From contig QPGO01000204.1 of assembly GCA_008632985.1 (NCBI GenBank), positions 62,001 to 126,000 of the forward strand: a stretch of 64,000 nucleotides of DNA, written 5' to 3'. The notes under the pieces were generated by a model. It did not search any database, was not told where the DNA came from, and worked only from the letters and a program-made list of their open reading frames with translations. How positions within the stretch are numbered: position 1 is the first letter of the stretch; every line of letters begins with the position of its first letter. The translations under genes and the position numbers were made by a program. Below, piece after piece: positions 19,182 to 63,120 of this stretch. The stretch is from Psammoneis japonica (lineage: Eukaryota).

Positions 19182-19285
19182 TCTAAATTCTCTCGAATTG
19201 ACAGCTATTCAGGCTAGCTAGAGAGTTGTCCGTGCAAACAAGAAGAAACTATACACTGTACATACATTCATAACTCTCAAAAATC

Positions 19286-24130: not shown

Positions 24131-24252
24131 ATGGGCCATCCGAGTGGAAATCGAAGATTGGCGCCTTTTGGTTGGCAAAGCGCTCTTGCCAGTGTGTGTG
24201 AGTCGCAACGGGTTCAAAGAAAGGGCATTGTTTCTCCCATTTTTCTACAAAT

Positions 24253-37219: not shown

Positions 37220-37266
37220 CAACAACAACAACAACAAGAACAACAAGAACAACAACAACAAAACAA
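37220..37266. repeat. Imperfect (AAC)n microsatellite
   Basis: Direct reading. Confidence 0.9.
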
Positions 37267-39714: not shown

Positions 39715-40034
39715 TTGAGCATCTTCTTCGTCTTGCTCACAGCTGCTTCCGTTGACACCGTCTTGAAACTCTTTTCCGGCATGAGCAACTGCAGGAACAA
39801 GAACAATGGTGAGAAGCTGGGCTAAATCCAGATGCTCTCAGGCAAATTGTTGGGATTCTCCATGTCTTTGTTTGGGTCTTCTGTCTCTTCCTCTTCCTCT
39901 TCTGCCAGCTCAGCAGCAAGCTGTTCTTCATTTGCTTGCTGAGCAATTTTCTTGCCCTCTCAGCCTTGAGCAGTCACTTCTTCACAGCCCCAACTCCTTT
40001 CCCAATGCATTTGCCTGTGCCTTTTGGGAATCTG
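39715..40034 (-). pseudogene. Distal piece of the duplicated STRA6-like gene (= 22076-22394), hypermutated
   Basis: Colinear with 22076-22394 and resumes exactly where the 30061-33192 copy stops. Confidence 0.9.
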
Positions 40035-41184
40035 GTGGGTCGCCGAGACTCACGATGGAGAGTGGGTCTGAGCCGACAGCTCCAGGACCCTGACACAGCA
40101 TCTTGAACTTGTGTGTTGATGCAAACCCTGCATCAGCGGAGAGCATGGTTGGCGATGTCACAATGATGCATGCTCGCATCATGGCATTTTTGCATTTGCA
40201 CACAAATGCAAACTGAGCTGCATTTGTTCACAAATGCTCGCAGTTGCTGGAAAAATCCTGAACCGATGCACGCCGTGATCACTCATTCACATGTGTGCAC
40301 ATGCCCTGAATGCGAACATTCTCTTCTCAACGCATGTGATGACATCATCACACATCACACACATGCAACACATCCCGCAGTGCCACTGATGCAGGGGGTG
40401 TGTTGATGCATGCTTTTTTGTTGGTCCGCGTTGCTGTGGCATGCGCGCTCAACAGAAGATGAGTCTTGCAAGCATGATGCGGTCTATGTTTCTATGTTCA
40501 ATTCCTGAAAGGGATGCAGGGGGTGTGTTGACGCTTGCTTTTTTGTTGGTCCGCGGTGCTGTGGAATGAGCATTCAACAGAAGATGAGTCTTGCATGCAC
40601 GATGCAGTCTGTGTTTTTATGTTCAATTCCTGAAAGGGTTGGTGGTTGCTGACATGTCTTTTGCAATCCTCAGGACAGGATAAATCACAATGCATGCAAA
40701 ATGCTCCTGAGACTGCGTCTGGCCGTGGGGAGTGGGGGGCGGGGAGGAGGTGTACGTAGGTCGGGAAAATCCCACTCCCGGCTTGGGAGGTCTGCAATTG
40801 GAAAAATCCGAGAACCTGATTGCCGACAGACGTGGTGAGCAGAGGGCAAATGAATACTGTACCTTCATTCACGATGAGAAATATGAACGGGGGGTTCGCA
40901 AATTTCATTCGAACCTTCAATTACCGATATGTAAGTGAAAAGATAGCGGCATGCTGTTTTCATTTTCTGCGATGAGCGATGATATGACAGCACAAAGACG
41001 ACGGCCCATTCATCATCGTATTCGTATGTACCACCTCTCTTCTCTTTGTTACTGTGGAAGCAGCTACTCTAGAGCACCCTATTACAACCCTCTCTAGCCA
41101 GACGACGACAAATCATACTGTAGTATTGGAAATCCTGTGGATACTCGACATTTTCTCTCAAAACAAAACACATACTCAATAATC

Positions 41185-42860: not shown

Positions 42861-43050
42861 GCTACCTGTCTCTATTTTAGCAAACTACAAAAACAGTATA
42901 AGTACAAGTGCCGCGCAATTTGACTTTCCTGAATACTGCACGTCGTATTTCCCGAATAAGGCATGTTGTATTTCCCGACCGTATCTCGTCGCATTCCCCG
43001 AATATTGCATGTTGATTTCCCTTTTCCAAAAACATGGGTTGAGTGGTGTC
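42861..43050. repeat. Dispersed repeat, copy 1 (also ~50113-50260 and ~62905-63120)
   Basis: GCTACCTGTCTCTATTTTAGCAAA(C/T)TACAAAAA(C/T)AGTATAAGTACAAGTG shared with 62905; internal TTTCC(C/T)GAATA(C/T)TGCA subrepeats. Confidence 0.85.
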
Positions 43051-43053
43051 GCT

Positions 43054-43884
43054 TCAAGGCATAGGTAGATTTGCGTTGTTGCGCTGGGAACGAGTCATGC
43101 GAGCCGGAGTCTCGGCAGTCCAGCTCCTGGGTTGCCCCATAGAGCGGTCATTGAGCTGAAGAAGCGCCCTGACAACAGAGAAAACAGAATCAAGTTTGTG
43201 AGCACAATGAAAGGCAATGGAATGTGGAAGCTGGCACACCACTTACAGCTCTTCAGTAACATCTGCCTGTTCACTTTCTGACGCTAGAGTTTCCCTCTGA
43301 GCTTCTACGAGATCGTTCTCTGCGTCCTGAAGCTCTCTGTCATCCACCACATATTGCATGGAACGTTGATCAAACTCTCGCGCTAAATCATTTTTGAACT
43401 GGAGCACTTGTAGAACGTCACGGTGAAACTTTTCCTCGATGGCTTTCCTCTTGCGCAAGAGGGCTTCCTTCTTCTTACACGCCGCAACCTCCTTGATAAG
43501 TCTCTCCTTTTCGAGCTCCAACTTCGCAAGCTTGGTATCGGTATCGTCGGAGGCTGCACTCTCCGGGGTACCATCCTCCTTTTCAGCAGCTCTAGTAGCA
43601 GCAGCCTTGGGCATCGGAGTGGCGACCGTGGCGTCACGGGGCGCCATGTTGGCGTCACGAGCATCCTTCCAGCAGCCCTTGTTCTGCGATAGCCATTCCC
43701 CTACCTCCCCTTGTCGTCCCGGAAATTCATCGTGGAGCTGAGGAATCATCGCATACAATTCCGATGCTTGGAAGTTGTTATCGAAGATATAGTTCAACTC
43801 TCCACGAGTGGCGGGCTTGACGACGAGCTCTTCCAAAGTGGGGTGGCTGGATAAGATCTTGGTTTCGTTGGACGAAATACTCAT
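43054..43884 (-). CDS. Two-exon orphan coiled-coil protein
   Basis: ATG 43884. Intron 43246-43169 (GTAAGT...TGTCAG) joins ORF 43243..43941 to the frame of 43054..43242. KLAKLELEKERLIKE heptads. Confidence 0.65.
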
Positions 43885-44396
43885 CTTGAAGGTAGATACA
43901 GTGATCGTAGGAACCGAAAAAAACAACAACAGCAACAGCAACTACGCCGCTAGTCTACAACGCAACAATGACGGCGTCATCGAGAAACGCGTTTTCGATC
44001 GTTCCATCTCCCGAGCGCCAGCCTCGGCGACGTTATTTTTGAACAGAATATGAAGCTATATATATGAACTAAGTAAAATGATATGGAAATTTAACTGGCC
44101 GGCTAATCTTTTTATTAATCTATAATGGTTGTATAAGGATTTTGAATCATTTTAAACCTACATGGTACAAGGATTGAAAAATATCATTATCTTTGGACTC
44201 TAAGATATTTGAACTATGAATATGTCAGTAAAGTTTCTACCAAGAAATCACGCATGTAGAAAAGTTACGTAGTCACACGCAAGGCATGACTATCAACGGA
44301 AAAGAAAAATATTTTTTTAGCACGAATCAACATCGTGCTACGCGCAACGGATGGAGCCTGTTCGCGAGACGCTCCCATGCATCTCATGCATTCACA

Positions 44397-46429
44397 ATGT
44401 CACTTCTGGAAGCGCCGCGACGACGGAAAATGACGACGACACCCGGCGCTGTGCCTCCTCAGATCCCATCTGCGTTGGAGGAGCTTCGCACACCCTCGAG
44501 CTGCTCCAATTCAGAGGATGCGGCAAGCTGTCTTTTCTTGTTCTGCACACGTGAGGACGAAATCTCTCAGTTGCTCACCGAAGCCGGATTTCTTGAGACA
44601 ATCATTGGTGCAATGGATCACGATGGGCAAAGTGTCGACTTTCACTCATCTCTCATTCATGTGATCCACATTTTCATTTGGTCGAACGAAGATGGTTCAA
44701 AAGAAATCCTTGAAAAGGGCGGTCTCAAAAGAACAATTTTTCTCATGGACACATTTGTCACGGACGAAAGCGTTCAGACGGCGGGAGTTCAGTGCCTTTA
44801 TAACCTTTTTCACCTCATGCTCAGAATCAGTAAGACGAGCGCGGTTGAAATGGGGACAAGCATCATGGAATGCATTGTCACAGCCATGGAAATTCACAAA
44901 GACTCAGCCTCGATCGCTAAATTTGGTTCTGGAGTTCTAGCACAGGCGTCGCTCTTTCTGGAAAATTCGTTTCATAATGATTTGATGCTTCGGTGCAAAA
45001 GGTGCCTCGAGCATTTCCTCTCGAACCACCAACCTCATGCTGAGGAAGGCAAGGAGAGGACAGTTTGTGCACGGTTGCGATCTTTGACAGAATGCTCTCC
45101 ATCCGTCGTGAGCCAGAGAAACTGAGCAATCCATCTCTCGGTGCGTCGGAGGCCACGCAGCTCTTTGATGCTGTGGCATTCTTTGCTGAGTCGGATGTGT
45201 CAAGAGCACCAGTCGGCGGCGGTTTTTTTGAAATGGCCACTGCTTCATTGAATGATGGTGGACAGAGCCAAGAGGTCTGTGAACGACTTTGTTTGATGCT
45301 CACTTTATTCATGGGCTTCGACGACAAAGGCAAGGGTTGCACGGAACAAATCCTTTGCACTGGCGGCCTCGAAAGCGCTCTTTGTTTCGTCAACAGTTTC
45401 CCCAAAGACGAAAGGCATCAGAGATCGGCGCTTGAGCTTTTCCGCTCTTTCTGCGTGAATGGCATTGATGCAAAAAACGGGGCGGACATTGCGAACACGG
45501 TGCTCAAAAGCACAATCAACATCATGAGCAACCATGAAGACTTGGCGCTTGTCTTCAGGCCATCTTGCCAGACGATTCGTGAGGCGTTGGCTGTTCTTGA
45601 CTTCTCTGTCAATGACGAAGCGCTCTTTGACCAATGCATCAACTGTCTTTCTGCTGGGGTTGCGAAGCATTGGAAAGACATTGAATCTGTCAGAGTCGGT
45701 CGATCTGTGCTGGAAGGTTTGATTGGAGTGGACGCTTCAAATGAGGTGTTGGCAAAGTGCTCTATGGCACATTTCAACTCCCAACTAGAGGAACTTCGTA
45801 ATCCATCTCGCAATTCCGTGAAGGCGCTCGCGGCCGCACAGGAGCTTTGCTCCGCAATCGACGCGGAAAAATTCCCCCCGTCCCTTGTCGATGCTGATTT
45901 TTTGGATGCAATCACCCGTGCCATGAATCACCTTGGCCAGTCCGGAAGGTTCTATTTTCCTTTGTTGAGGATCCTTGTAAATCTCATTTCACTGGAAGAC
46001 GCAACTGAGAAAATCGTTGAGATGGGAGGCGTCGCAAGATTGCTTGGTTTTGTGAAATCCTTTGATGCTCTTTACGTCATCCAACATTTTGCTTCCGAGA
46101 AGGGCGGTGCCTTTGCTGCTGCCATTGTCAAGAACGTTGCAGAGGCAATGCAAGCCCACAAGGACTCGACAAAAATCTACTCCACGGGTTGCAAGGCACT
46201 TGAGCGCTCGTTGAAATCGATTGGATGGTGTGTTGAAGATGAAAAATTGCTCAAGAGAGTTGTGGACTGTGTTTGGCATGGCATTGCAAATCATCCCTGC
46301 GATGACGACTTGCAGTTGCGAGGTCGCAGGCTGCTGCATGCATTGGTTGGAGACGAGGCTGCCAAAGAAATGATTTCACATTCTGAGCATCGTCATTGTG
46401 CCGATGCTTGCTGCAGTGCCGCTGCTTGA
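44397..46429 (+). pseudogene. Armadillo/HEAT-like repeat protein with three ~220-aa modules; frameshift near 45065-45125; partly TpA-depleted
   Basis: Modules start LEELRTPS / EKLSNPS / LEELRNPS and each contains I...GG...., AM..H and C..L patterns of ARM repeats. Confidence 0.6.
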
Positions 46430-46959
46430 GAGGCACAGTTTTGAACTCCGGGAATGCTTTGTGCTTTTATTTAGATTTGCAGTTTTTTGTCCTTTGGTGG
46501 ACTAAGACGAGCTGCGGCACCCAACCATCCGTTCTTGATCTCTCCTTCCCCATTCCACGAAACAAGGATCAAGAGGGCCGTGCATCCAACCCAAGTCTCT
46601 CGCAGGAAACTGATGGTGGCCTTTGATTTCGACAGACATCCTCTCTGCCAGTGGCTGGCAGCCAGTGGCTGCTGCCACAGTGCCCCCCTGCTGCTGGCTC
46701 TGTTCTGGCTAAAGGCCTGCGCATCCTGCATCACAGTCCTCCAGTTTCAAGTTAGCATCCCGATGTTGAGACATGCCGACACAGATGCTTGCACCGGTGT
46801 TACATTCCTCCTGCTCCTGGCAAAAGCAAATCAGAAATGACTGTCACATGCAAACGAGTGGTCCGCTGAACTTTGAAAGGGCAGAGCTCTAATGTTGCAC
46901 CAGACAGGAGCAGACAGAACGACGAGACTGCTTCAGAATCTAATCAATGAGAACTACAA

Positions 46960-47800
46960 AGAGAAGGCACGGGAAGTGCAATTGCCTTCCAGATCGTTGG
47001 ACAACATGTGCAAAATGTCGAGATTCGCAAGCGATTGGATTGGCAGCCGTGAAATCAAATTGTTGTGACTTGAGTCTGAGGATGCTACAATGTTGAATGT
47101 GATGTCAAGCGGGGAGTTTGACGCCATTGGTGAAGATCGTTGACACATGACAATTGCTTCTTATCCACGCCTGCAAAGCTTGCCCAGCTGCGAAAGCTGT
47201 GAAATGGAAGGCGAAATGGGCCCCTCCAGTTCACAAGCCCGCATGGAGAGCATCTCTTTTCGTTCAAGGCGAGAACAAGAGGTGATGAACGTAAGCGCAA
47301 GGTGCCATGCGACAAAGTAGAGCAGCTCATTCCACTCACCCAGCAACGTTGGCTCGTAAATTGCAGACGGCATGGCACCCAACCAGTCTTCATCATTGAG
47401 GTTCAACGCAACTGGAATGTGCAAAAAGGTGTGGGGGCATCAGCACGAGCCATCCAAAGACAATGCCAGGATGAACAAGACATTTGCCTAGCTGGTTGAA
47501 ACTGCGAAGCTTCATTTGAATGTCAGCAATGGAGTTGCGTGGCAGATTCATCGAATGCATCGTCGATGATTCATGCAGTTCTTCGGGAAGAGCTCCACCA
47601 ATCCGATTTCCTTTGTTTCCAGTGTCGAGTTGAACAACTTCTCCCATGGAGTTGCAAGAGACAAACCTCCATTTGCATTCACCCATGTGGGGACTCAACC
47701 AGAAGCAATCGTTTGTCCACGTTCAGTCTCTTCCAGCAGTGTGACAGAGAACAGCCATGACATGACGTTGGACGAGCTTCTTTGCATCATCGCTCAGGCC
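46960..47800 (-). pseudogene. Leucine-rich-repeat (LRRNT + plant-type LRR) gene remnant, TpA-depleted
   Basis: ECKWRFVSCNSMGEVVQLD...NRIGGALPEEL, LGAMPSAI, CELEGPISPSISQLSQL and NDLEG in broken frames. Confidence 0.7.
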
Positions 47801-49399
47801 GCATTGAGCTGCCCAACCAATTTGTGAAAGTTTGTCTGTGTTCACTTGCCAACAACGTGCCTTGCTTTGAGGGGACTCAGTTGTGCCAATGACAAAGATG
47901 CCTGGGGTTCAGAGGAGAGACTTCAAACCCGCTTGCACCTTCTTTCTAGATTGCCGCACACATTGCCCCAAAGAGGCAGGTGGAAGGGTTGTCTGCTGCC
48001 ACCACCCACAAAAATCATGTGTGTGCACAGATTGCTGCTGCAAAGCACACCAGATTGGGTCATTTGTTGACTGTTGACCAGCACACCCAGTGCCGCCACA
48101 AGGCTCACAAGGACATGCAAGAATGTTGGCGAGCCGGTGGGCTGAGAACAAGAAGTTCTCTAAGTTCCTGACTTCATCTTTGACCCCAGGTTGGAGACCA
48201 GGAAGAGTGTGGTGGATGGAAACCATGTGGTGCCAAGCTTGCAAGCTTTGAGACTTGCCAGCAGCATGTCAAAGCTCTGGTCAAGTGTGCCAAGAGCCGG
48301 CACAGGGCCAAAACTCACACAACTGCCTGTGTTGGTCAACATGAAAACAACTGACACAGAAAAAGCAAAGTGGCAAGCAAGGTGCAATGAAGGAAATGCC
48401 TGGGATTGGGGTGGGCTGCTGATGAGTGATGAGGCTGGCTCTGTCTGCTCTGCAGCTCCAGTGCATGCATGTGTGACCCCCTCATTTTTTGGAATGCTCT
48501 GCGTGACAAAGTCTCACAGAAAAATCAAACTTGCAGATCCAATGATGATCAATTGCGCACAGCATCAACAAAGCCAGCACCCTTCACCATCCAACAGATG
48601 CTGTCAAACTTGTCATTGTGGAAGTGTGCCATGTGGCATTGGAATGAGGAGAATCGGTGGTCAATTCGTTCCATTTCTTCCAAGACTGAACGGGTGCAAA
48701 ATTGTCACTTTTTTGTTTTTTGGTTGGTGCTGACATGCATCATTGATTGTCATCATGCACTCAGCTTTGTTGCACCTTGCAAGCTTTGGTGTGGAAATGT
48801 GTGTGTCTTGTGGTTGTCTGGGCTGTTGTTGCTGTCGTGAAATGGTTCTGTCATTTGTGAGAGTTGACTTGCCAGACATGTGCCCACACTTGCGGGTGGA
48901 ACTCTTTCTTGTTGTGATGCAGGTTCTCAGCCCACACAGTGCCAACAACAATGATCAAAGATGCAGTGGATGCAGCAGAGCCATTGTTGCTCTCATTGCC
49001 TGCTTGTTTTCATGCTTGCATGCTGCTTGACGACAGAGCCTTGACTGCTTTGACAAGCCCTGCTTTTGAAAAGAACAGAGAAACTGAGCAAGATTGAACA
49101 TGGCAACCAATGCAAGGAGGAGCGGTGCAGACCTGGCCATTTTGTTCTTTCCGGGGGGGGGGGGGGGGGGGGGGGAGATGATGCCAGCCCCGATGAGAGC
49201 TCAGTGAAGAAGGGTTGTTCAAGCAGTTGTCAGATTGGAGCTGTTGACAGGGTGTGTCATGTTCCCATTTTCCTTGTTGCTGACACAACACATTGTGTGT
49301 CTTCAAGGTCCACTTTAAATCATTGCAAAGCCCGGCAAATCAACCAAAGCGGTGCCCTCCCAGTGGTGAATTCTGTCACTGCAAAGTTTCCTGTGACAA

Positions 49400-50080
49400 G
49401 CACTGCCTGAATTGAATGTTGATGATGGAATGGATGGGTGGTTCTTGCATGTCCTGTGGCAACAATGATCCACACTGCACCCAAACTGCAGGCTTGGTCC
49501 CAAATGTTGGAATCGCAGATTGGGCATGAGAAAGTTTGCAAAATGCAGCCATCATCAAGAAAAGAGCAAAATCTGGGGGGCTCATTGCCGTCAATGGCGC
49601 AAGAGAGGGTGAGCTCATCCAGGAGCACACGGGTGAAGTCATTGACCAAGAAACAAGGAAGAAATGCCTCGGAACATGGGCCAGATCATCCAAACAACCC
49701 GCACTGCTGTGTGATGTGTCTTGACACCTGAAGGCACATTGATGCCATAAAATCCTGCAGGAAGAACATTGCTCCTGTTGGTGAATTCCTGTGACACAAC
49801 TGCCATTTTGACACAAAGGATGGTGCCAGTGTTGAGGCACCTTGGCAGGATGGGAGTCAGAGGAAAACAGGAACAAGAAGTTGCAAGAGCACGCTTTGAA
49901 CGCAACAAGAAATTTCTGTTGGACCTTGACAAAGACAAAGTGCGCAGACGTTGGCATGTTTCCAATCTTGTGCCGGGTGCTGCCAAAGATGAGACCGTTG
50001 CAAGCAGACCACAATTCAAGAGTTTGCAGTGAACAGCAGGCTCTTCTTGTGGCGCATTGTTGTTCTGGGGGCTAACTTTG
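49400..50080 (+). pseudogene. SET-domain (SETD2/NSD/ASH1-type) remnant, hypermutated paralog of ~61180-62000
   Basis: GLIAVNGAREGELIQEHTGEVID aligns to GLVAVNGAEWGELIQEYTG*VID; colinear DNA through TGTTCTGGGGGCT. May extend upstream to ~48300. Confidence 0.75.
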
Positions 50081-50112
50081 AGTGCCAATTAACAGCAAGA
50101 GCATTTCAAAAG

Positions 50113-51010
50113 CACTTTGCAAACCACAAAAACAGAAGAAGTGCAAGTGCCGTACATTTTGACTTTCCCGAGTGTTGCATGTCATGTTTCCTGAATGCAC
50201 GTCACATTTCCTGAATGTTGCACGTTGCATTTCCTTCCCAAACACATTGTGGTTGAGTGGAATCTTTTCAAAACAATGGCAAAGGGAGACCGGCTTTCCA
50301 GCATTGGGAACCAGTCAGGCCGGTGGTCAGAGCATCTGCAGCCCACTCAATTTGAAGAAGCCTGCTGGCAACAGCAGCAGTGGAAAGAGAAAACCAAAGC
50401 AACATTGTGAGCACAATAAAAGGCAATGGACTGTGGCTGCTGGCACAACACTTGCATCTTTTCTGCAAGAGCATTCGTTTCCAGGAGCTCTGCATGTAAC
50501 GCTTTGGAATCAGAGATGATCTCTTCCTTGGAAACAATGGAATTGCTGATGATTGCTGCCCTCTCCTTCTCCAACTCAGCTTTTGTGATGAGGGTCTTCC
50601 TTTTGATCTTCAACATGGCAATCTTTCCGTCCGCATCCATGTTGTCGGAGGCTAAAGCTGCAAGGATCTTGCATTCCCCAGCGGCACTTGAGGTTTAAAA
50701 GCCAATGCCAGAAGGCCTGTTGCTGGCCCAGATGTTCCTCCAGCATCTCTGCTTGAGATTCAAGGTGGAGCTGTTCCTCCAAGTCAGCAATGTTCTTGCT
50801 GATGGTTGCCACCTGCTTCTCCAGCAACTCAGACTTCTTGATGCAAATGCTTCCTTTTAAATTTCAATGAGGCAACATTCTTTTCTCAGCCATCAACAAG
50901 ATGTTCTTTGCATCCGTGTTGTGGAAAGAGGGCGGGGTTGCGGGACAAAGTGCTCATGCTGCCGCAATGTGTGCAACCCTTTCAGATTGCGATGATTCTC
51001 AAGATGGAAG
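50113..51010 (-). pseudogene. TpA-depleted paralog of the repeat + coiled-coil gene unit at 42861-43884
   Basis: 50113-50260 matches 42873-43047. 50405-50458 matches the intron at 43197-43246 (GTGAGCACAAT.AAAGGCAATGGA.TGTGG). Coiled-coil remnants in ORFs 50347..50640 and 50576..50827. Confidence 0.6.
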
Positions 51011-52979
51011 GTGCACACACAGTGCACACCAGGGTTGCATGTGTGCATGTACGCTGTGAGCCCTGTGATGCCCTGGCCTGCCTGCCGGCCTTGCCTGGCC
51101 AGCTGCTGTGAGACCCAGGCCTTGAGGATGGATCATTGTTTTGCGGTCAATTTTATTTAGAGCTCATGCACATTTAAAAATAACCCGGATTTGTTGCACT
51201 GACAATGCGCGTGTTCGCCAAAAAAAAAATCAGCGATGGGTTGAACTTTGTCTGTTTGTGAGACAACATAGAGCGCACATGTGACGGTTGCGACCATGCG
51301 CGACATGTGGCTTGACAACTGCAGACATGTCTGTGGCCAGTCAAATGCCAATCATTGGCATTTCCTGGAAAGATGTGGCTTGTCTGTCTGCCACAACAGC
51401 CCAATTTTGGCGGAAAGTGGCGGTTTGTTGCATGTGACAACCAAGGCAAGCACAACAATTGGTGTTTGAAGGTCAATGCGTGTAGTTCACATGAAGGTCT
51501 AACAGCCCTGATGGGGGCTGGACACACTCATGTGTTTTTGGGGGTGCTCAGAGGCTTCGCAAAACAACACGGGCAAAGCACAGGGAAATTTGAAAATCAC
51601 GAGCCATTTAAAAGAACAGCAATGGGAGTGAAAATGCAGAATGAAGTTGGCGTGCGGTTCAAGAAAAAAAGTCAAACACAAATCCCTCTGGCAATGGCAT
51701 GAGACAAATGATGCGGTTGCAGCCCTGCGAACAGGGTGTGGCAGAAGATCATGCGATCAGTCGGTCAACGCGCCGCTTTGCAGCAATGCGCACCAGAGAT
51801 AAAAGGTCAAGGAAAAATTGCACCAGAATGAGATCATTGCTTTCTTTTGGAGAGGATTTAATGCACCCAAACCGCCACAGCAAGGACAATCACGTTAAGT
51901 GGAGAATTCAAAGTCAGTGCAACCTCTGAGAGAAAATCTTTGCCTCTGAGGGAGAATCTTGTCTTCAACAAAGACTGACAGAATTTCACAATTGCATGGA
52001 CCAGAACAACAGCATGCAGTTCACTGCTTGGAACAGTGATCTTGGTGGGCCAGCAAGTGGAAAAGGGAATGTTCAGGACTTGCAAGGATGAAACAGGAAG
52101 TTGTGCTGATGTGACAAGAAGGTCGTTGGAAGAAATGTCATTCTCGTGTAGAATTGACACTGAATCTTGCACAGAAAAGCCAATCCACGCAGCAAAAGGA
52201 CGGTCGTCAGGTGATGCCAATGGTTCACCACAACAGGGACTGTGCTTTCACCACATGCACAAAGGAGACATGTTAGAAGCCATGCAAAGATAAAGTGGTG
52301 AGTTTGTGTTATGATTTTGCTCACAGTTGTTGACTCATCTTGAAATCTGTGTCTCAGATGTTCTCACTGCTTACACCCTCCCGTCTCTTTTGGCCTTCTA
52401 CAGCAACTGGCTTACAATCACCTGCCAGCATGGCAGTTTTTGGTGATTGATGAACTGTGCAACAAACATTGGGTGTGTTGCCCTGACCATGGCAACGAAC
52501 AAGGAGAGCCAGCATTCAATGTGTGGCTGGCTCGATCGAGCCGAGAGAAAGGATCAACATGTCCAATTGCAGGGTTCTGTTGTGGTGTGCTCAAAACGTC
52601 CCAACAAAAGATTCATTTTACAGTGTTGGATGGCCTTGGGAGTCGTTCATGCCGACAACCGCAATGGCTGCGAAACGATGGAGAGTGCCAGCTCTAGGAA
52701 CAGCCAGGTCTGCTCTAGAGAGGCGCGCAGCCCATCATGCGGCAGTCTGTGTCCCGCGCCCCGGTGCGTGCTTGAAGACAATGGACAAAGCATGCCAACA
52801 ACAACAAAAATGGCGAGAACGAAGAACCATCGATCATCGTTTGTGCGATGGCGCACACGCACACACAAGAGCAGCAATTGCACCTGGAGAGCATCTAAAA
52901 ACAACATTGGAAACATGTGGTAAGTTGACAACGCTCTGACTTTCAGTGACAATGCCATTTTTGAAGTTGCACCCCTCAA

Positions 52980-53234
52980 TGTCAATGTTCTGGGTTTCAA
53001 TCGGAACTCGTGCGCGATCTCATGCGCGTCTCTGCTTCAAGACACACACCAAGACTGGCTCTTGTGTGCTGCAGTTTTTCATTCGATTTTCTCCTCACAA
53101 TTTCAAGATGACAACAGTGCAACAACACCTTTTTTTTGGTCTCATCACCTTGATCTGCCTCTGCCCAGCCAGATCAACCTCTCTTCGACCTCTTCACGTC
53201 GAAATCCCAATTGCTCCGTTCCTGAGTCATTGCA
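52980..53234 (+). repeat. 5' LTR (contains no TpA)
   Basis: Aligns end to end with 60139-60399. Confidence 0.95.
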
Positions 53235-53249
53235 GGTTATGAGCCCAAG
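53235..53249 (+). promoter_or_regulatory. Primer-binding site of the internal/half tRNA-iMet type
   Basis: GGTTATGAGCCCAAG directly after the LTR, resembling the Drosophila copia PBS GGTTATGGGCCCAG. Confidence 0.75.
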
Positions 53250-53726
53250 TGTCATGCTTGCGACTCTGCCGCATTGCGCCATCGTTTCCTCAAGAAGCGA
53301 ATTCTCACCCCAGCACATCTAGGTGCATTTCCATGCACCACGTCGACACATTTCAGACGCTCATGACAGAGACGCCATCTCTGGCAATGGACGAACTCAT
53401 CACTCAACCAAACAACCTTCAGCTTCAGAGTGCTGAACTCCTGCGACAAATCGAGGAAGAACGAGAATGGCCAGCCCACAATCCTCCTCCGACTGCCCCT
53501 TGAGAAGACACTTCAAGGGGAGAACTCACCACCCAAGACTTTCACGCAGGAGACCGCGTGTGCATCACGAACGAAATCCGTGGTGTCCGGTTCAGACAAG
53601 CAAACGTCCAAGACCGCCAGGCCACAGTCACTCAAATCACTGCCAAACACGTCTTCGTACGCACGGACAACGGCAGCACAACAAATTGTCATCCAAAGAA
53701 CCTTGTTTTCCTTGCCCAATCTCAAG

Positions 53727-55274
53727 ATGACTACGAACGCTGCTCCAGTCTCTGCTCCCGACTCTGCCAAGACAGGGACGACTCCTCCTCCTTCGGTTGC
53801 GCAGACCAAGCTTGGCCAGGCCACTCCAACGACGACCGTCACGATTAACGGCCGCACTGTTCAAGTTCGGAAACAGCCAGAAAACTCACTCTCAGATGAC
53901 CTCAGCCCTGCACACGAAGAAGCAGAGGGAGACGCTTGCTCCAGACAAGCTCAACGACATCTTCTCTCATGCCACAGCACCCAAGCAGCAAACCAAATTT
54001 GACCTTCTTGACATCAACATCGCCGATCCTGACAAGTCAGAGGACACCTGCGACTTCTCCATGTCGATCCAGACCATGCGCGCAAATCACATCAAGTGCA
54101 ACATGGACGACATTTTCCAGGTCGTCGATCATGTCACCCTCAAGACTCGCAACTTGCACACCAACTGTTCGACTGTCACCGTTGCTGAAGTCACTGCGAG
54201 CAACAAGTGGCACTCCACCATGCTCGACAACCCGATGGCAAGTGGGCTTCTCAGAATCTGAACCTCACCTGTGATTGCGCCATCAAGCACGCTTCTCCAC
54301 CTTTGACCAAGAAAGTCAACGAGACTTGCCTGCGTCATTCTAACGAAGAGCGCGGTGGACCGCTCCACTTCATCATCATGATGAAACTCCTTCAGAGCGA
54401 CTCTGAAGAAGCCGCACTTTATCTCGTCAAGCTGCTCTCATTGATCAAAATCACCGATTTTGATGGCAAAGACATCAGCAAGGTTGTCTCGCTCATCCGT
54501 GGTGGTGTTTCTCGCCTCGAGAATCTCAAGGACCCCACCGGCAAGACTTGCATCCCAACCGATTTTCTTGCTCAGCTGACAAAGGTCTTCCAGACTTCCA
54601 GCATGGCCAAATTCAACGGACTCTTTGATCATCTCTCCAAAAAGTCCAAACTCAAGAAGTTTGTTTCTGTGGCTGCTTCAACTTCTGCTTCTGTGCCTGT
54701 CGAATCGATTGCGAACCTCCTTGACATTGCCGAGCGCAAATGTCATGCTCTGTGCGCACGCGACAAGTGGTCCGGCGTGACCACCAAGGCCAATGCCTCC
54801 TCCTTTGTCGCGAGCATCCTCAGCAAGTGCTTTGGTTGCGGCACCGAAGGATGCTCTGTGGACAAGTGTCCCAAGCCTTGCGATGAAGCTCGCATCAAGG
54901 CCAACAAGAAGCTTTGTTTCGACACCAAGCACAACAAGTCCAAAGCCGCCTCACCGGGCAAGCCTGCCAAACAGCCCCCAGCGAAGTGGAAGCCTCCGAC
55001 CGACGAGGAACGCAAGAACAAGAATCGCCGTGACATCGACGGCAAGGATTGCTTTTGCCATTTCAAGACCAAACGTTGGAAGCCTGTCAGCGCCAACGTC
55101 GCTGCGCCGCCTCCTGCATCAGCTCCTCCAGCTCTTCCGACACCTCCTGCAGCTCCGACACCGGGTGCCGATGCTCGTGTCGCCGCCACTGAGGCAGCAA
55201 AGGAGCTCGCCATCGCTGACGCGACTCAGGCCATGCAAGACACCTTCCGTGGTCTCCTGGGCGCCTTCACTTGA
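53727..55274 (+). pseudogene. gag: gag (frameshifted) with Cys knuckle CFGCGTEGCSVDKC
   Basis: ORFs 53430..54002, 53797..54261 and 54207..55274 chain together; GGPLHFIIMM..LQ and ITDFDG.D.SK motifs; position in element. Confidence 0.8.
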
Positions 55275-56249
55275 CTTCCCGGGCGCGCCACTGCCCTGCT
55301 CCCCACTTGGCACACAGCCCACCCTCAACCACCCGATCCTGGAAGGGACACCCAGGTTTGGCTCCATTGTTTGTGTCTGTGGTTTGTTGTTTCGTTTCTT
55401 CAAGAGGGTGATTTCGGACATTGCGTGCCATCTGACTGTTTTCAGCTGTTGTCTCCAGCAGTCATGGGATTGTCTTTCACATGCTGTTCTTTGCAAAGAA
55501 ACCCACAATGCTGCACTTCTCCAAGCAACCTGCACACGCTGACTTCATCTTCGAGCCAACCCCACAACCTGCTTCACCAACTCCAAATCGCCGACTGCCT
55601 CGAGCGAAGCAGCATCCACTGCATTTGTGTCATGCGGCGTCCTGTCCTGCATCCAACAAGGACTCCTCCAGTCTGTCTCTGGAAACCCTGGACTTGGACG
55701 TTCAAGCGCAGGACTCCAGCTCCTCCTCGAAATCTGGATCCCGAACCAGACAATCCCTCAAGACGTCTCACATTGCGCCATCGCCGACACTCAAGACGCT
55801 ACAAGCGCCCAAGAGGGCACTGCTCCAATCGCTCCTGTCGGAACCCTCAATGTGAAAACCAGATCTTCATGCAAGGATTCAAACAACTGGTCCTCTGAAC
55901 CAGATGACAATCCTGGCAACAAAGAATTCGCCCGCATTCGTCATCGATTGCTCCATCAATCATGGATCATGCATGATCTACAATTTGGCATCAATCTGGA
56001 CTCTTTTGTCAAGTCCATTGACCCACTGCGACAGCTCTGTTGCTGGAGAATCTTGACTGCTCCTGAAGTCCTCGAATCCATCAACAATCGCGATCCGTTT
56101 TGCTGTCTCACCACCACCTTGAGCAACAACGAGCGCCAAATTGTCACCTCACCTCAGTTTGGTGGAATTGCCATGTTTTCAAAACAGGCAAAACACATTC
56201 AGACCGCTGGAACACCAAGGAAGAAAGAACATTTTCAAGCTTGCCTTTC

Positions 56250-59200
56250 TTCCACAAAAACGGACACTCCAATCATCCCAGATGCCGGCGCTTCATCCTC
56301 TTTAACCCCGCACATCTCACCAACTTCATTGGACCTCTTGAACCAGCTTCGCATGCCGAGATCAAGGGCCTTGCATCCAGTGCCCGCGTTGTTGGAAAAG
56401 GCACCGTCAAATGGGACATTGTCGACTGCTGGAACGTCACTCGCACCGTTCGGACAACTGCCTGTCACGTCCCTGACTGCTCAATCAGACTCTTCAGTCC
56501 TCAAACCCATTTCCAAGAGAATGAGAACAATGGATGCTGCCACATCTGTGGCAACAAGTCCATCCTCGAGCTGGCAAATGGCAACAAACTTGAGTTCCCC
56601 TGCAATGCTGGGAATGACTTGCCTCTCATGCTCACTGCTCATCCTTTCAAAGGCGGCATTGACTCCTGTCATGTTGCCCCACTTTTGGATTCTAACTGTT
56701 CATTTTTGTCAGTTGCTGCTCAGACAAATCAGAACATGACACCAGCTCAAAAGGAGCTCCTTCTCCTTCACCAGAAATTCGGACATGCTGGATTCCAGTG
56801 GATCCAATGCCTTTGCAAGATTCCCTGGAGTGAACAGCACAGCCAAGTGCTCAAGCCGCGAAACCCAACAACCAATTCATGCGATGCACCTCTCTGTGCA
56901 GCTTGCCAACTGGCAAAGCAACAACGACGCAATCCCGACCATCGCAGCACATCCAAACCTCAAGAAATGACCCTTCGTTCCAAGGATCTTTGCCCCGGAC
57001 AAGGTGTCTCCATTGACCAGTGCATCAGCCATCTCCCTGGCTGCTTGCCCAAGTCAAAAGGAAAGGAAGCCCCAAGAACAAGTGCAATGGCGGCACACTT
57101 TTTGTCGACCATGCATCGGGCTACGTCCATGTCAACCATCAAGTTGGACTCACTGCTGGCGAGATGCTTCATGCCAAGCAACGCTTTGAACAGCACTGCA
57201 ACACCTTTGGAGTCCAGGTGCAGCACTGCCATGCTGACAACGCATCCTTCGGTTCCAAGGCATTCCAAAGTCACATCAATGACAACGGGCAGAAACTCAC
57301 CTTTTCTGGCGTTGGAGCTCATCATCAAAATGGGGTTTCCGAGCGTGCACACAAACCATGACCTCATGGGGTCGAGCTCTGTTGCTCACGCCATCCTCAT
57401 GTGGCCTGATCAAGCCAATCTCGAACTGTGGCCTTTCGCCATGGAACACGCCGCTTGCATTTGGAATCATTTGCCCCGTCAAGATTCCCGACTTGCTCCT
57501 GTCGAGATTTTCTCCGGCCAACGCTTGTGTGGGGTTGTCCCGCGTACGTTCTCGACCCGAAACTACAAGACAACAAAAAGATCCCAAAGTGGAACGCACG
57601 ATCTTGTCGTGGACAGCATCTGGGCGTCTCCTCAGATCACTCCATTGGCATCGGACGGATCCTGAATCCAAACACCGGTTTCACAAGTCCACAGCATCAC
57701 GTGGTCCATGATGACCATTTTGCTTCAGTCCCAAATGCTGATTCCGGCGGCATCTTTCACAATGCTCCGTTTGACGCTGGATCCTTCTGACAATCCAAGA
57801 CACGGCCAACCATGCCTCCACGATCATTGGTTGACTGCGCGCGAACGTGCGCATCGCAACTGCCACCGCCAGTGACAAAAAGCCAACAAATCCGCTGCCA
57901 AGAATGCCCAACCCGCCACCCAGGACATTTCTGACTCCTCTTCTGTCTCTGCTCCAGAGGAGTGACAACACCAAAACATCAAACTGACGATGATGCAGTG
58001 GACGTGGGAGCATTCACTCCAGAGGGAGCCAAACCTCCAGAGGAAGAGACAGACTCTCTGCCTCCACCGGAACCACCGGATGACAACGAGTTGTCTCTTG
58101 TGGATCATTTTGATCTGCCAGACGACGATGATGCCGTCGCAAGCAACAACACGCCACAGCCATCACCTCCACTGCAAGATGTGCAACCACGACGACCACT
58201 CAGAGTGGCCGCACAAGTGGAAACCGTCACGTTTTATCAAATCGATGATGGCTCACATGTCCTTCCCAAACACTGAGTCTCCACAAGCTCACAAGAACCC
58301 GAAACGGACGGTCAAGGCTGAATCCTCTGAACCAGCAATTCTTGATGTCCTTGCAATGGGAAAAGATCACTCACACTCTCCAATCTCGTGACCTCAGTGC
58401 AATGTTCAACATTCTGCGTGCCAATGCCGACATTGACCACAACACAGTTGAAGAATTTCACCCTTTGGCCTTCGCAGCAAAGGCAAACTCGGGGCTGACA
58501 ACCCTGCTTGGGACCAAGCAATGAACGGACCAGACCGTGCAGCCCATTTGAAGGCTTGCGACGTCAAACTGGATGCTTTGGCAAAAGGCAAAGACGCTTG
58601 GGATGTTGTGGATTGTGAAGATTGGATGAACGTCCTGCCATCTGCTTGGGCGTTCAAATGCAAACGATTTCCAGACAGTCGCATCAAGAAACACAAGGCT
58701 CGATTTTGTGTTCATGGCAACAAGCACTCGAAGGCATCGACCACTTTGACACCTTTGCTCCAGTGGCAAATTGGACAACTGTGCACCTCATGCTCATTCT
58801 GTCTCAAATCTTGCAACTCTCTACAAAACAGGTCGACTGTGTTACGGCTTTCGTACATGCTCCGATCGACAAGGACCCCGACTTCGACAAGTTGTCGCCA
58901 GAGGAACAAGCTCGTTCCGGCGTCTACGTTGAAATGCCTCGTGGCTTTGCGGAACCTGGGAAAGTCCCAAAGCTCAAGAAATCCGTCTGTGGACTCAAAC
59001 AAGCACCGCGAAACTTCTTTTTGCACCTCAAGTCCAAACTAGAAGGTGCCGGATTCACCGCTCAAGACGACGTCGATCCGTGCCTCTTCATCTCGGACAA
59101 AGTCATCTGTCCAGTCTACGTCGATGACACCCTCTTCTTCTCTCCCAAGCAAGAGCACATCGATGAAGTCATTGAAAAGATTCGCCTTTCTGGACTCGCC

Positions 59201-60111
59201 ATCGAAGAAGAAGACTCAGTCGCGGGATTTCTCGGCGTGCACGTCAAGCGCGACACCGATTCAGGTGCTGTCAAGCTCACCCAGAGCGGCCTGGCCCGCC
59301 GTGTCGTGGAAGCCCTGAACATGCCTCATCTCCCAAAGAAATGTGCACCAGCAACTGCCACTCCACTCATTCAAGATGCCGACGGCGACCCTCCTGCAGG
59401 CGCCTGTGACCATGCAAGCGTCATTGGCATGTTGCAGCATCTCGCCGGCCACTCTCGGCCGGACATCTCGTGTGCAGTGAGTTCCGCTGCCCGCTTTGTT
59501 CACTCACCTGAACGCTCGCACGAAATTGCTTTAGAGCGGATTGGACAATGTCTCAAAGGGACCCTCGACGAAGGTCTCATTTTGCGCCCAACCGGAAATC
59601 TCGATGTCGACGCACACGTCGATTCTGACTTCGCCGGTCTGTGGCCACACGAAGACAAGCAAGACCCTGCGTGTGTCAAGAGCCGCTCATTTGTGTCTCC
59701 AACTGTCCCATCATCTGGACAAGTAAACTCGCTCCCGAAATCGCACTCTTGACGATGGAAGCCAAGCACAACGCTCTGTCCTTCTGTGTGAAGAGCGTTC
59801 TTCCGTTTCAACGCGCCGTGTGCTGCATCTCTGAGTGCACCGGCATTGGCACCTGCATGTCTGCCACCTTCAAGACTGCTGTCTGGGAGGACAATGCCGG
59901 AGCTCTGACTCTCGCGAACATGGAACCTGGTCGGATCACTCCGCGATCCAAGCACTGTGCTGTCAAGTGCCGCTGGCTCCGGTCCCATCTCAAGCCCAAC
60001 GATGTCACTGTCCAGAAGATCTCTACCGATCTGCAAAGGGCAGATTGCCTAACCAAAGGGCTTACAAGGGACGCATTCGAGTCCATTCGCAAACTACTCT
60101 GTGGATGGTAA
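56250..60111 (+). pseudogene. pol: pol (protease, GAG-pre-integrase/integrase, RT, RNase H), multiple frameshifts, Tyr to Cys/His
   Basis: DAGAS; H.KFGH...C.AC; LWPFAMEHA..IWN; SAWAFKCKR; CGLKQAPR; YVDD; HVDSDFAG; WEDNAGA; QRADCLTKGL. Confidence 0.93.
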
Positions 60112-60129
60112 TTGATCTCTCACTCGTTC

Positions 60130-60138
60130 GAGAGGGAG
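60130..60138 (+). promoter_or_regulatory. Polypurine tract
   Basis: GAGAGGGAG abutting the 3' LTR. Confidence 0.8.
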
Positions 60139-60399
60139 TGTCAACATTCCGGGTTTCAATCCGAACTCGTGCGCGATCTCGCGCGTATCTCTACTTCAAG
60201 ATACACATCAAGACTATCTCTTACGTACTACAGTTTTTCATTCGATTTTCTCCTCACAATTCACAATTTCAAGATAATAACAGTGTAACAACACCTTTTT
60301 TCAGTCTTATCACCTTGATCTGCCTCTACCTAGCCAGATCAACCTCTCTTCGACCTCTTCACGTCGAAATCCCAATTGCTCCGTTCCTGAGTTATCGCA
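60139..60399 (+). repeat. 3' LTR (retains 14 TpA)
   Basis: Aligns end to end with 52980-53234. Confidence 0.95.
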
Positions 60400-60404
60400 C
60401 TCAA

Positions 60405-62000
60405 CATGCTTTCATCGGTTGCTGCTGCAGACGAATTCTGGCGACGCTTCCAAAGGTCCTGCATCGAATTTGCGTCTCCTCTACCAGCTGCCACAGTCAA
60501 TCACGGGTATGTTTTGCAGTTCCAATGGAGAATTCGCTGCTGCTTGTCAAGTAGTAACGCCGTCACCAACATTGGTACCGTCGGCGGCAACCAGCAGTAG
60601 CCTGTATGGCTCTGCTTGTCTTGTCATGCGGGTTTATGCCATTGCAACGAGTTTGTTCATGGTCTTTACTACAATGGTTTGAACCATTGCTAACGAGCGG
60701 AGCAGGATTGGGGAAAAACTAATGGTCAATTTCTCAAAGTATTGAAAGGGGACGTGAAGAGGGATCGAGACGCAGACACATGAACAGGCGGTTTCAGAGC
60801 AGTTAAATTTGTTTGTTCGATTGCAATGGCGGCCAAAAATACACGAGGCCCGAAAGGAACGTTCAAAGACGAAATCGAGGGGAAAAAGGGTGCCGTAGTA
60901 GCCTCGATGATGCACGAATGTCTACCACAAACAGCTGGACTCGAAGGCAGCATGGTTAAGTATCATATATGGAGAAAATTGTGTCATGCTTCTCTACTGG
61001 CACCGGTAATTTGGATAATGCTCAATCCGAGTAAGAAAATGGCGATGAATTCGACGAGAGCTTGCCAAGAATATTCCCCTCTCCAAGTTTGAATGGAAGT
61101 TACGTTATGTGGCGAAGAAGGGAACTGCTTTCGGTCGACTCTTTTGCTTTACTTTAAGATACCGTACGACACCAGTGACGAGCATTGTCTGAATCGAATG
61201 GTGATGATGTAATGTACGGGTGTTTCTCGCACGTCCCGTGGCGAGAATAATCCATACTTAAACTGTAAGCTTGGTCTCAAATATGGGAATCTCAGTTTGG
61301 GTATGAGAAAGTTTGCAAAATGCAGGCCTCAGCGAGAAAAGGGAAAAGGCTGGGGGCTCGTTGCCGTCAACGGTGCAGAATGGGGTGAGCTCATTCAGGA
61401 GTACACTGGTTAAGTTATCGACGAAGAAAGAACGAAGAAACGCCTTGAAGCATGGGCTAGAGACCGTCCAAACGACGCCATTTTCTACGTGATGTATCTT
61501 GACACCGGCTGGTACATTGATGCGAGCAATGAGGCCAACAGAGTTGATTCGTTAATCATTCGTTTGATCCAACCTGCAAACTGGTCCGAGTCAATGTTGG
61601 AGGGTACTTGCACGTTGCCATCAAATCCTGTATGAACATTGTTCCTGGAGAATTTCTGATTTACGACTACCAGTTTGATACAAGGGATATTTACAAGTTT
61701 CTCTGTAGATGCGGTGCTGCTAAACGTCAAGGCACCTTGGTGGGAAAGGAGTTCCAAGATTGTGCCGAGCAGAAAACAAAGGGACAGGAATGAGGAGGTG
61801 CGAGGGTACGCTTGTACCGCGACAAGACATTTCTTGAGGACCTTAAGAGACACGCAGCACACAGACGTTTGCATGTTTCAGATCTTGTGCCGTGTACTAC
61901 CAAGACGAGACCGTTGCGAGTGGACCGCAAGATTGCGATCGAGAGTTTGCAGTGAAAAGCAGGCTGTTCTTGTGTCGTAATGTCGTTCTGGGGGCTGACT
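60405..62000 (+). pseudogene. Degenerate AWS-SET-postSET histone methyltransferase (H3K36-type) gene; probably continues upstream of the copia insertion (~52400-52979)
   Basis: KGWGLVAV....GELIQEYTG*VID, FYVMYLDTGWYIDA, INHS.DP.C, PGEFLIYDYQF and FLCRCGA (post-SET); HCLNRM (AWS-like); Cys-rich upstream remnants; stops and frameshifts. Confidence 0.8.
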
Positions 62001-62254
62001 TCTCGGCAAGGTGCTTATCACTGGAGAAAGCTTGCAAAAAGTCTTGATATACATGAAACAATGAAGCGATAGGCATCTTTTCTCTCTTCGAAAGGGCGTC
62101 TTAGTGGAGGTTCTTGTGAACACTCCCTGTACCGAGTGTTTTGTACATTCAGAAAAGTTGAATGTGCTCTGTATCCTTATCTTCTACATACTGGTGGCGC
62201 GATTGGAGGTGACGCTGCTTCTTGGGATGGTACAGTAGTGATAGATACCTGGAG

Positions 62255-62462
62255 TGGCGGCGGCGGTTGCGGCGTACCATAACGAAGAAGAAGTTGGGAT
62301 GGACCTGCTGCTGCTAACCTTGGACCTTCTGCTGCTAACCTTGGACCTACGAAAGTAATATAGTAATTTGTGGTGATGCTTGGCGGCGGCGGCGGAGCAT
62401 AACGAAGAAGAGGAATTTGGGATGGACCTGCTGCTGCTAACTTTGGATCTACGAAAGTAATT
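62255..62462. repeat. Two-copy tandem duplication (~120 bp) with internal GGACCT..TGCTGCTAACC subrepeats
   Basis: CATAACGAAGAAGA...TTGGGATGGACCTGCTGCTGCTAAC...CTACGAAAGTAAT occurs twice. Confidence 0.8.
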
Positions 62463-62904
62463 GGTGGTGATGCTTATGGGCCACGAAGCATTGCAGAGCA
62501 TAATAGACCTGGACCAAGAATACACGGTGACGACACGTACGGCCCTGCTTCTCTAGCATTCTAGGAACCCCTGTGGATACCCGAGATGGTCTGGACACGT
62601 ATTGAGCATGGGCCTGGACCTTACGCACGCCGAAGTGTTGGGAACACGTACGGACCCGGGCGTGGAATGAGTGCAGATCGATTTCGCCTCCTAGACTAAG
62701 TGAGGTGATTCGTACGGACCATCACAGCCACACGCACCTCGTGTCCTACCACACACTCATACGGTTTGGTGTAAGGTATGCTCTCTAGAACAAAAATCCC
62801 GAGCTTACTGCCGCTGCTCGCTCTTGCGATCGCAGCTTCTCTTGCATTATGTGGTACTCGTACAGAAGGGCGAGTAGCGATACCACAGAATTCAAAATCA
62901 CCTT

Positions 62905-63120
62905 GCTACCTGTCTCTATTTTAGCAAATTACAAAAATAGTATAAGTACAAGTGCTACAAGTGCCGCACATTTTGACTTTCCCGAATATTGCATGTCGTA
63001 TTTCCTGAATAATGCATGTCGTATTTTCCGAATACTACATCTTGCATTCCCAAAGGTTTTTCGTTGCATTCCCCGAACATTGCACGGTGCATTCCCCTTT
63101 CCCAAACACATCACATGGTC
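62905..63120. repeat. Dispersed repeat, copy 3 (see 42861-43050)
   Basis: Direct alignment. Confidence 0.85.

Follow-up and report, generated by a model that had tools for sequence, protein, structure and literature searches.

Probable block-confined conversion of TpA to TpG and CpA in a copia retrotransposon and neighbouring DNA of the diatom Psammoneis japonica

We analysed a stretch of 64,000 nucleotides from the diatom Psammoneis japonica (assembly GCA_008632985.1, contig QPGO01000204.1, positions 62,001 to 126,000 of the forward strand; this whole stretch is the window, and coordinates are positions within it), in which a Ty1/copia long terminal repeat (LTR) retrotransposon at 52980-60399 has lost nearly all of its TpA dinucleotides. 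The loss very probably reflects a real process on chromosomal DNA, confined to blocks, that turns TpA into TpG or CpA. The change runs in that direction, is specific to the one dinucleotide, falls evenly on the two strands, came after insertion, is confined to bounded blocks and does not depend on repeats. In the fuller explanation, which we hold with high confidence, the copia element would have inserted first and the process would then have acted on the double-stranded chromosomal DNA of a bounded chromatin block, converting nearly every TpA to TpG or CpA through a single kind of event, A>G at an A preceded by T, equally likely on the two strands. The block would reach from 8.6 kb upstream of the element through the 5' LTR and the element body and halt just before the 3' LTR, with four further blocks elsewhere in the window.

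The element is a single insertion, laid out as follows.

52975-52979, + strand: upstream copy of the target-site duplication, CTCAA, 5 bp, read directly and identical to 60400-60404
52980-53234, + strand: 5' LTR, TG...CA, free of TpA (LTR alignment)
53235-60138, + strand: copia internal region with gag, pre-integrase, integrase, RVT_2 reverse transcriptase and RNase H, split over several frames (Pfam, tblastn)
60130-60138, + strand: polypurine tract, directly before the 3' LTR (sequence)
60139-60399, + strand: 3' LTR, TG...CA, mostly spared, with 14 TpA and 15 CpG (LTR alignment)
60400-60404, + strand: downstream copy of the target-site duplication, CTCAA, a perfect match to 52975-52979

The TG...CA LTRs, the 5-bp target duplication, the polypurine tract and an integrase upstream of RVT_2 place it in Ty1/copia; the Pfam match to RVT_2 has E = 4e-22, and that to gag_pre-integrs is weak. 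The closest named copia relatives are polyproteins of Nitzschia inconspicua, at 57-60% identity. When the element is compared by tblastn with 71 full-length relatives, the alignment spans segments in three frames, so the element must carry frameshifts. A preliminary description of this DNA had proposed that TpA hypermutation inactivated the element: the TpA loss holds, and as the sole damage it does not, frameshifts being present as well.

The LTR pair dates the change. The target duplication is intact, and both LTRs therefore come from one insertion and were identical at landing, as the preliminary description supposed; alignment confirms that they are now unequal at all 14 TpA of the 3' LTR, which read TG (7), CA (6) or CG (1) in the 5' LTR, where the TpA count is 0. 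Double hits to CG would be rare because the target is a palindrome, and a first hit removes it from the two strands at once. Over 254 aligned bases the LTRs mismatch at 27: 13 of these set TA against TG or CA, 2 belong to the single TA-CG site, 4 come from two sites where one LTR has TG and the other CA, 5 set CpG against TG or CA, 2 are transversions and 1 is a transition of another kind. Comparing TpA altered (14/14) with other bases altered (13/226), a rough Fisher test gives p = 1.2e-15. For TpA, the observed-to-expected ratio (o/e) is 0.00 in the 5' LTR and 0.07 in the element body; it reaches 0.66 in the 3' LTR, and ordinary window DNA has 0.5-0.8. The internal region holds 28 TpA in 6904 bp, a density of 4.1 per kb where ordinary window DNA has 41.8 per kb. 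The 3' LTR itself seems to have taken about two hits, at the two sites where it has CA and the 5' LTR has TG. Five of the 15 CpG that it retains are missing from the 5' LTR, and the spared 3' LTR appears to have escaped both TpA loss and CpG decay. Within the same 255 bp, TpA loss would have been the faster of the two (14/14 versus 5/15), and the pair points to a rate at least roughly two orders of magnitude above background, because there are 3 substitutions outside TpA and CpG in about 200 bases of the two LTRs and 16/16 inferred ancestral TpA are lost from the 5' LTR. In length, the LTRs differ at two places only, a 1-bp difference in a T run and a 7-bp indel, TCACAAT (60254-60260 versus 53094/53095), which is a local tandem duplication or the loss of one.

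Could the element have been edited before it integrated? In animals, retroelements are known to be hyperedited with a preference for a 5' U, a point made in the Discussion of a preprint to which we return below (Mettrop et al., bioRxiv April 2026, 10.64898/2026.01.13.699255), and one could suppose either ADAR-like A-to-I editing of element RNA or deamination of cDNA during reverse transcription, followed by insertion of the edited copy. Such editing is expected to mark one strand, however, and here TG and CA are balanced; both LTRs would share the changes, yet they differ at 14/14 TpA with the target duplication intact; and it cannot reach the 8.6 kb of upstream flank or the separate blocks with FG-GAP and copine fragments described below. 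We consider pre-integration editing exceedingly improbable. The unequal LTRs within an intact duplication fit the post-integration process that was proposed at the outset.

The depletion extends well beyond the element. A 500-bp profile of the window is bimodal, with five blocks at TpA o/e mostly 0.00-0.25 and the remainder mostly at 0.4-0.9, and TpA loss is accompanied by gain of TG and CA, for which the corresponding values are 1.2-2.15 in the five blocks versus mostly about 1.0-1.4 elsewhere. The five blocks, given without strand, are these.

1-1617: block depleted of TpA and CpG at the window start, extending beyond the window
14423-19049: TpA-depleted block with its left edge inside an FG-GAP-repeat frame
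23005-24929: TpA-depleted block with a copine-like gene fragment lacking Tyr
33890-40617: TpA-depleted block, nearly CpG-free (o/e 0.00-0.26), with a tandem array at about 34880-36800
44340-60138: TpA-depleted block covering 8.6 kb of DNA upstream of the element, its 5' LTR and its body

Under a slightly rounded block mask covering about 30 of the 64 kb, the blocks contain 141 TpA in 30,314 bp (4.65 per kb) and the rest of the window 1409 in 33,686 bp (41.8 per kb); the longest TpA-free run is 1667 bp, against a mean spacing of 24 bp. The left edge of the block at 44340-60138 is sharp, with 35 TpA in 44034-44339 and the next at 44799. At its right edge the depletion stops within about 100 bp upstream of the polypurine tract and spares the 3' LTR. 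Sharp block edges that ignore element and gene borders indicate that hits are governed by position and not by sequence, in agreement with the earlier suggestion of a chromatin-targeted process.

Mobile DNA would not be the only substrate. An FG-GAP-repeat frame at 14072-15373 (- strand) straddles a block edge: 14402-15373 has 0 Tyr and 14072-14449 keeps Tyr. This frame looks like a fragment of a host-type gene caught in the process, and targets would therefore not be limited to transposons. In its depleted part one reads VRVHEC and VWVFEC where the repeats usually have aromatic residues. A copine/VWA-like fragment at 23480-23944 (+ strand; Pfam Copine, E = 1e-12), also inside a block and also with 0 Tyr, is probably a hypermutated pseudogene. 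The targets may be of mixed origin: the copia element is mobile DNA, the remaining blocks contain unannotated DNA besides the FG-GAP and copine fragments, and one repeat family, described below, is also present in unmutated form. Pfam searches of 27 long open reading frames (ORFs) of the blocks returned FG-GAP, copine and two sub-threshold matches, and no viral or transposase domains outside the copia element. The repeat array at 34880-36800, tandem or nested with units 68-86% identical, has o/e values of 0.00-0.06 for both TpA and CpG and is the most decayed part of the window.

Stop codons disappear along with TpA: blocks and the DNA outside them have 60 versus 307 TAA and 31 versus 297 TAG (91 versus 604 together), and 626 versus 644 TGA. 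Spurious long ORFs arise in the blocks because TAA and TAG are lost in this way, and 51 ORFs of at least 80 aa lie in the 8.5 kb at 52500-61000, with long frames on both strands. Most long ORFs of the blocks would be by-products of stop-codon loss. Gene callers would be misled here by spurious ORFs in all six frames, and LTR-divergence dating would be invalid for elements of this kind.

The specificity of the process can be measured from six repeat pairs, the LTR pair and five found by BLAST of the window against itself, each with one copy within a depleted block and one outside that is taken as the ancestor. Pooling both strands, A>G occurs at 49/112 TpA strand-sites (56 dinucleotides) and at 13/233 ApA, 11/196 CpA and 12/218 GpA (36/647 in total; Fisher p = 1.6e-23 versus TpA), which amounts to 0.44 per strand-site at TpA and 0.055-0.056 in the other three contexts. 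The TpA-specific A>G first described is thus enriched about 8-fold per strand over ApA, CpA and GpA. Counted by dinucleotide, 47/56 TpA became TG or CA and 1 was kept; where flanking bases could also be aligned (55 sites), the outcome was CA at 24, TG at 22, CG at 1 and something else at 8. In six control pairs with both copies outside the blocks, the differences are symmetric. The near-equal numbers of TG and CA in the repeat pairs (22:24) and the LTRs (7:6), and of Cys and His at former Tyr codons (9:7), confirm that TG and CA are the same event on opposite strands of double-stranded DNA, as the preliminary description had argued.

Beyond the dinucleotide itself, an extended preference is visible. 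ATAT survives 0 times inside the blocks versus 87 outside, and ATAC/GTAT 0 versus 202; the best-surviving contexts are TTAA (18 versus 68) and CTAA/TTAG (28 versus 120). In the repeat pairs, the base after the hit A is C in 23 events, T in 13, A in 8 and G in 2, and on the unchosen strand it is C in 11, T in 11, A in 13 and G in 11. Such an extended context is possibly the footprint to be expected of an enzyme.

Taken alone, the LTR differences are neutral as to direction, and one could suppose instead that C>T changes at CpA and TpG, in the manner of fungal repeat-induced point mutation (RIP), made the TpA of the 3' LTR and of normal DNA, the TpA-free state being the original one. Protein conservation argues against this. 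We defined conserved columns as those with at least 70% agreement among at least 15 relatives, using 71 relatives of at least 1200 aa aligned to the element by tblastn. The element has the majority residue in 519/647 of these columns, and residue types other than Tyr are retained in 56-97% of theirs; at the 19 conserved Tyr columns, by contrast, it has Tyr at 3, Cys (TGY) at 9 and His (CAY) at 7, so that 16/19 read Cys or His. All five motifs from which the loss of Tyr was first noticed are present (VCGLKQ, HVDSDFAG, HASVIGMLQHL, EAKH and KHCAVKC). Intact relatives do not already carry Cys or His at such positions, since in 21 conserved Tyr columns of the 120 relatives listed these residues account for 27 of 2113 cells (Tyr 1864, Cys 12, His 15, other 222). 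Of 80 related copia loci taken from metagenomes, 79 fall at TpA o/e 0.46-0.84, versus 0.07 in the element body, and each of the two LTR sites with TG in one copy and CA in the other is one step from TA on either side and two steps from its counterpart. The TpA-rich parts of the window, moreover, hold intact-looking host genes. Judged by the Tyr columns, the metagenomic loci and the TG-versus-CA sites, the change ran from TpA to TpG/CpA, as first read from the motifs, with a RIP-like reverse direction excluded; we give the latter a vanishingly small probability.

Two of the relatives deserve mention in their own right. Metagenome contig L019:1-1693 is the only low-TpA locus among the 80 (o/e 0.21, TG/CA 1.47) and has Cys or His at 3/9 conserved Tyr columns, versus 0/100 in eight further loci; possibly it is a copy that was hypermutated in part, in a different environmental organism. 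Relative P0121, which comes from a public data set and has Tyr at 6, Cys at 2, His at 4 and other residues at 4 of 16 conserved Tyr columns, may likewise have been hypermutated.

The label "reverse-RIP" that was first given to this phenomenon is misleading in one respect, as a repeat trigger is unsupported. One repeat family is mutated at 49390-50463 and unmutated at 61172-63111 and 42861-43254, and the duplicates 19089-22046 and 30113-33053 (2.9 kb, 96.4% identical) keep 125 and 122 TpA and differ symmetrically. Because family copies exist in both states and near-identical duplicates are untouched, repeat homology appears not to be the trigger. A second segmental duplication, 7892-9416 and 12615-14054 (91.9% identity), has normal TpA as well and stops beside the block edge at 14423; both duplications carry host ORFs and served as controls. 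Host-type ORFs in the TpA-normal parts have named relatives only in diatoms, for example Thalassionema, with best identities of 45-49%, which points to a diatom lineage that is poorly sampled. Among the genes of normal DNA are a TLDc-domain protein at 41098-42669 (+ strand; Pfam E = 6e-27), with named relatives in Asterionellopsis, Fragilaria, Attheya, Chaetoceros and Epithemia, and an Ipi1_N-like protein at 6330-7808 (+ strand). Both are intact-looking, and because each is a single long ORF the host appears intron-poor.

If repetition does not mark the targets, what does? Decay of CpG to TpG and CpA is the footprint of cytosine methylation, and in the six pairs a CpG of the outside copy reads TG or CA inside in 44/77 cases, the reverse holding in 5/34. 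Some blocks are almost CpG-free, with o/e 0.00-0.26 in 35001-40000. The coincidence of edges suggests that the target is probably silenced, likely cytosine-methylated chromatin rather than repetition, and silenced chromatin is what the process would act on in the mechanism that we propose. Diatom transposons are CpG-methylated and marked with H3K9me2/3 and H3K27me3 (PMC9998398, PMC4504042), and the diatom DNA methyltransferase paper, in its available text, mentions relatives of DNMT4/RID and neither TpA nor deamination (PMC9998398).

Could the letters themselves be wrong? Modified bases cause systematic miscalls on some platforms, and a strand-symmetric TpA modification in heterochromatin might be misread in this way, the true DNA being TA. 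One public run, X1, contains 80% of sampled 31-mers of 52500-60900, and contigs built from it match eight depleted stretches of 338-554 bp at a depth of 33-42 with 0-2 substitutions and no bubble at former TpA; six of the eight are exact, the others have up to 3 gaps, and one, 52624-53095, lies in the 5' LTR. Because the contigs have this depth and the longest measures 315 kb, the X1 reads must be accurate, so accurate-read contigs carry the same letters and do not show TA at these sites. The 40 best-supported differences that separate the window from X1's other copies of the family include 5 with TG or CA at a residual TA of the window, 3 adjacent-pair swaps between CA and TG, 2 with TA kept where the window has CA or TG, and about 11 with CpG in the other copy and CpA or TpG in the window; as the choice between TG and CA differs at the same sites, the other copies would have been hit independently. 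Misreading of a modification on both strands further predicts mixed TG and CA reads or CG; neither is seen, CG standing at just 1/14 LTR sites and 1/55 pooled sites. The element also has frameshifts and CpG decay, and heritable de novo events of the same type are reported from Illumina data in Bigelowiella natans (10.64898/2026.01.13.699255). In favour of an artefact, there is no record of the library type of X1, and its reads may be those from which the assembly was made, so that they would not be independent. Overall, we think an artefact of sequencing or assembly very unlikely. Two other runs, X2 and X3, contain next to none of the stretch and have no bearing either way.

Besides the uncertain origin of X1, several points weigh against our account of a block-confined process in silent chromatin. 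The 8/55 TpA sites with other outcomes (GA 5, TT 1, AA 1, kept 1) do not fit it directly and are probably alignment noise in pairs of 65-78% identity. The context preferences come from 46 events, with the -2 and +1 positions inseparable in a palindromic site. Near-normal CpG (o/e 0.7-1.0) occurs in three depleted stretches, 14500-16500, 44500-46000 and 53000-60000, and the tie to cytosine methylation thus lies in correlated edges rather than in strict overlap. With 1/80 related metagenomic copia loci similar, the process is not visibly common among relatives. Finally, neither an enzyme nor a modified base nor a de novo event was observed in this analysis.

As to chemistry, we tentatively lean towards a deaminase, TadA/ADAT-like or other, that is recruited to silent chromatin and turns adenine in DNA into hypoxanthine, and would put the chances of this at a little under even. 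Natural tRNA substrates of TadA/ADAT enzymes always present U33-A34, and the bacterial target is U-A-C; the pointers to an effector of this type are the requirement for a 5' T and the tendency to hit TAC over TAG, and these only. Another model starts from the thymine: a TET/JBP-type dioxygenase or other T-modifying enzyme would convert the T of TpA to 5-hydroxymethyl- or 5-formyluracil, which pairs with G and leads to T>C. All of our counts fit this equally, since T>C at TpA is A>G read from the other strand, and there are precedents in that dinoflagellate 5-hydroxymethyluracil prefers TpA and TpC and that 5-formyluracil is mutagenic towards T>C. No sign of such a base in diatoms turned up, though no search was aimed at one; near-complete conversion would require a highly mutagenic lesion, and the preference for TAC over TAG on the hit strand (23 versus 2, compared with 11 versus 11 on the unchosen one) resembles the U-A-C of TadA, although it can also be read as a preference for G-T-A around the T. 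We regard thymine-directed chemistry as unlikely, if a good deal less so than the artefact discussed above, and some other chemistry would take up the remainder of the probability. Ultraviolet TA photoproducts, biased gene conversion and overcorrection by T:G-mismatch repair (compare very-short-patch repair) also came to mind from general knowledge, and were set aside as they leave the near-complete, block-confined loss unexplained. Whether the process serves as genome defence or is a by-product of heterochromatin chemistry seems to us evenly balanced.

The preliminary description knew of no described system of this kind, and on this point it is superseded: the preprint introduced above reports the same signature, TpA-restricted A:T>G:C hypermutation, in integrated giant-virus and virophage DNA of B. 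natans (10.64898/2026.01.13.699255). According to the available text, 231/302 nuclear point mutations of mutation-accumulation lines fell in two integrated viral regions, where all but one were A>G or T>C and every A>G or T>C was on TpA; the rate was about 6e-7 per site per generation, around 1000 times background, with a range of about 1e-7 to 1e-6 in some lineages; TpA-poor coding sequences were enriched for reverse transcriptase and DDE domains; and an ADAT2-like adenine deaminase was proposed, unproven there (10.64898/2026.01.13.699255). A term look-up in the same text gave 0 occurrences each for diatoms, stramenopiles and retrotransposons (10.64898/2026.01.13.699255), and full-text literature searches, which covered neither subscription-only papers nor preprint supplements, found no report of the TpA signature in diatoms or stramenopiles. 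The kind of process is thus already known, if barely, from this one preprint on B. natans, the single directly relevant paper that the searches found, and the diatom host is what is new.

What, then, does the diatom case add? It would place TpA hypermutation in a second eukaryotic supergroup lineage, and in an ecologically dominant group of phytoplankton, and tie it to LTR retrotransposons and to blocks with methylation-type CpG decay. To the B. natans case it contributes depletion close to saturation, a date after insertion (read from the LTR pair), independence of repeats and a first extended sequence preference, and it narrows the search for the enzyme to deaminase or T-modifying paralogues common to diatoms and chlorarachniophytes, with chromatin-reader domains. 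We find it tempting to speculate that diatoms carry a dedicated mutator of silent chromatin, independent of repeats and most simply a DNA adenine deaminase, that is, a natural adenine base editor on chromosomal DNA, and that it belongs to an old or horizontally spread defence arm of the stramenopile, alveolate and rhizarian (SAR) eukaryotes; as a whole, this speculation is somewhat likelier to fail than to hold. If it were true, a natural enzyme making A>G in chromosomal DNA would be of interest to base-editing research, and a SAR-wide mutator, present in a stramenopile and a rhizarian, would be a functional parallel to fungal RIP and its chemical mirror image.

Compared with B. natans as far as the preprint describes it, the process in P. 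japonica shares the restriction to TpA>TpG/CpA, action on both strands, confinement to discrete regions and the coupling of TpA loss with gain of CpA and TpG. The hosts differ, a diatom (stramenopile) here and a chlorarachniophyte (rhizarian) there, as does the extent, since the change is near saturation here (o/e 0.00-0.10) and their viral region stands at 0.45. About half of our window is affected, including an LTR retrotransposon and neighbouring DNA that is not transposable, the blocks coincide with CpG decay, and an extended sequence context is visible. De novo events were seen in B. natans, whereas the diatom process is known from its traces in the DNA alone, with none observed. RIP in ascomycetes is alike in that it, too, is a hypermutation by transitions at a specific dinucleotide, fills transposons with missense changes and produces a bimodal landscape of dinucleotides; a Rhizoctonia paper, in the part available, deals with ordinary RIP indices (PMC7884421). 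But RIP turns CpA into TpA by C>T, the opposite in direction and chemistry; duplication triggers it, and both copies are hit once they exceed about 80% identity, whereas here family copies differ and 96%-identical duplicates are untouched; and it creates the TAA and TAG stops that are removed here. Deamination of 5-methylcytosine likewise leaves TpG and CpA in silenced DNA and is present in the same blocks (CpG 44/77), yet it acts on CpG and not on TpA, and in the LTR pair TpA loss is 14/14 and CpG loss 5/15. Retroelement editing by ADAR and APOBEC in animals, finally, also produces clustered, context-biased transitions that disable retroelements, ADAR favouring a 5' U, but it acts on RNA or single-stranded cDNA before integration, is asymmetric between strands and is common to both LTRs, in contrast to the change described here.

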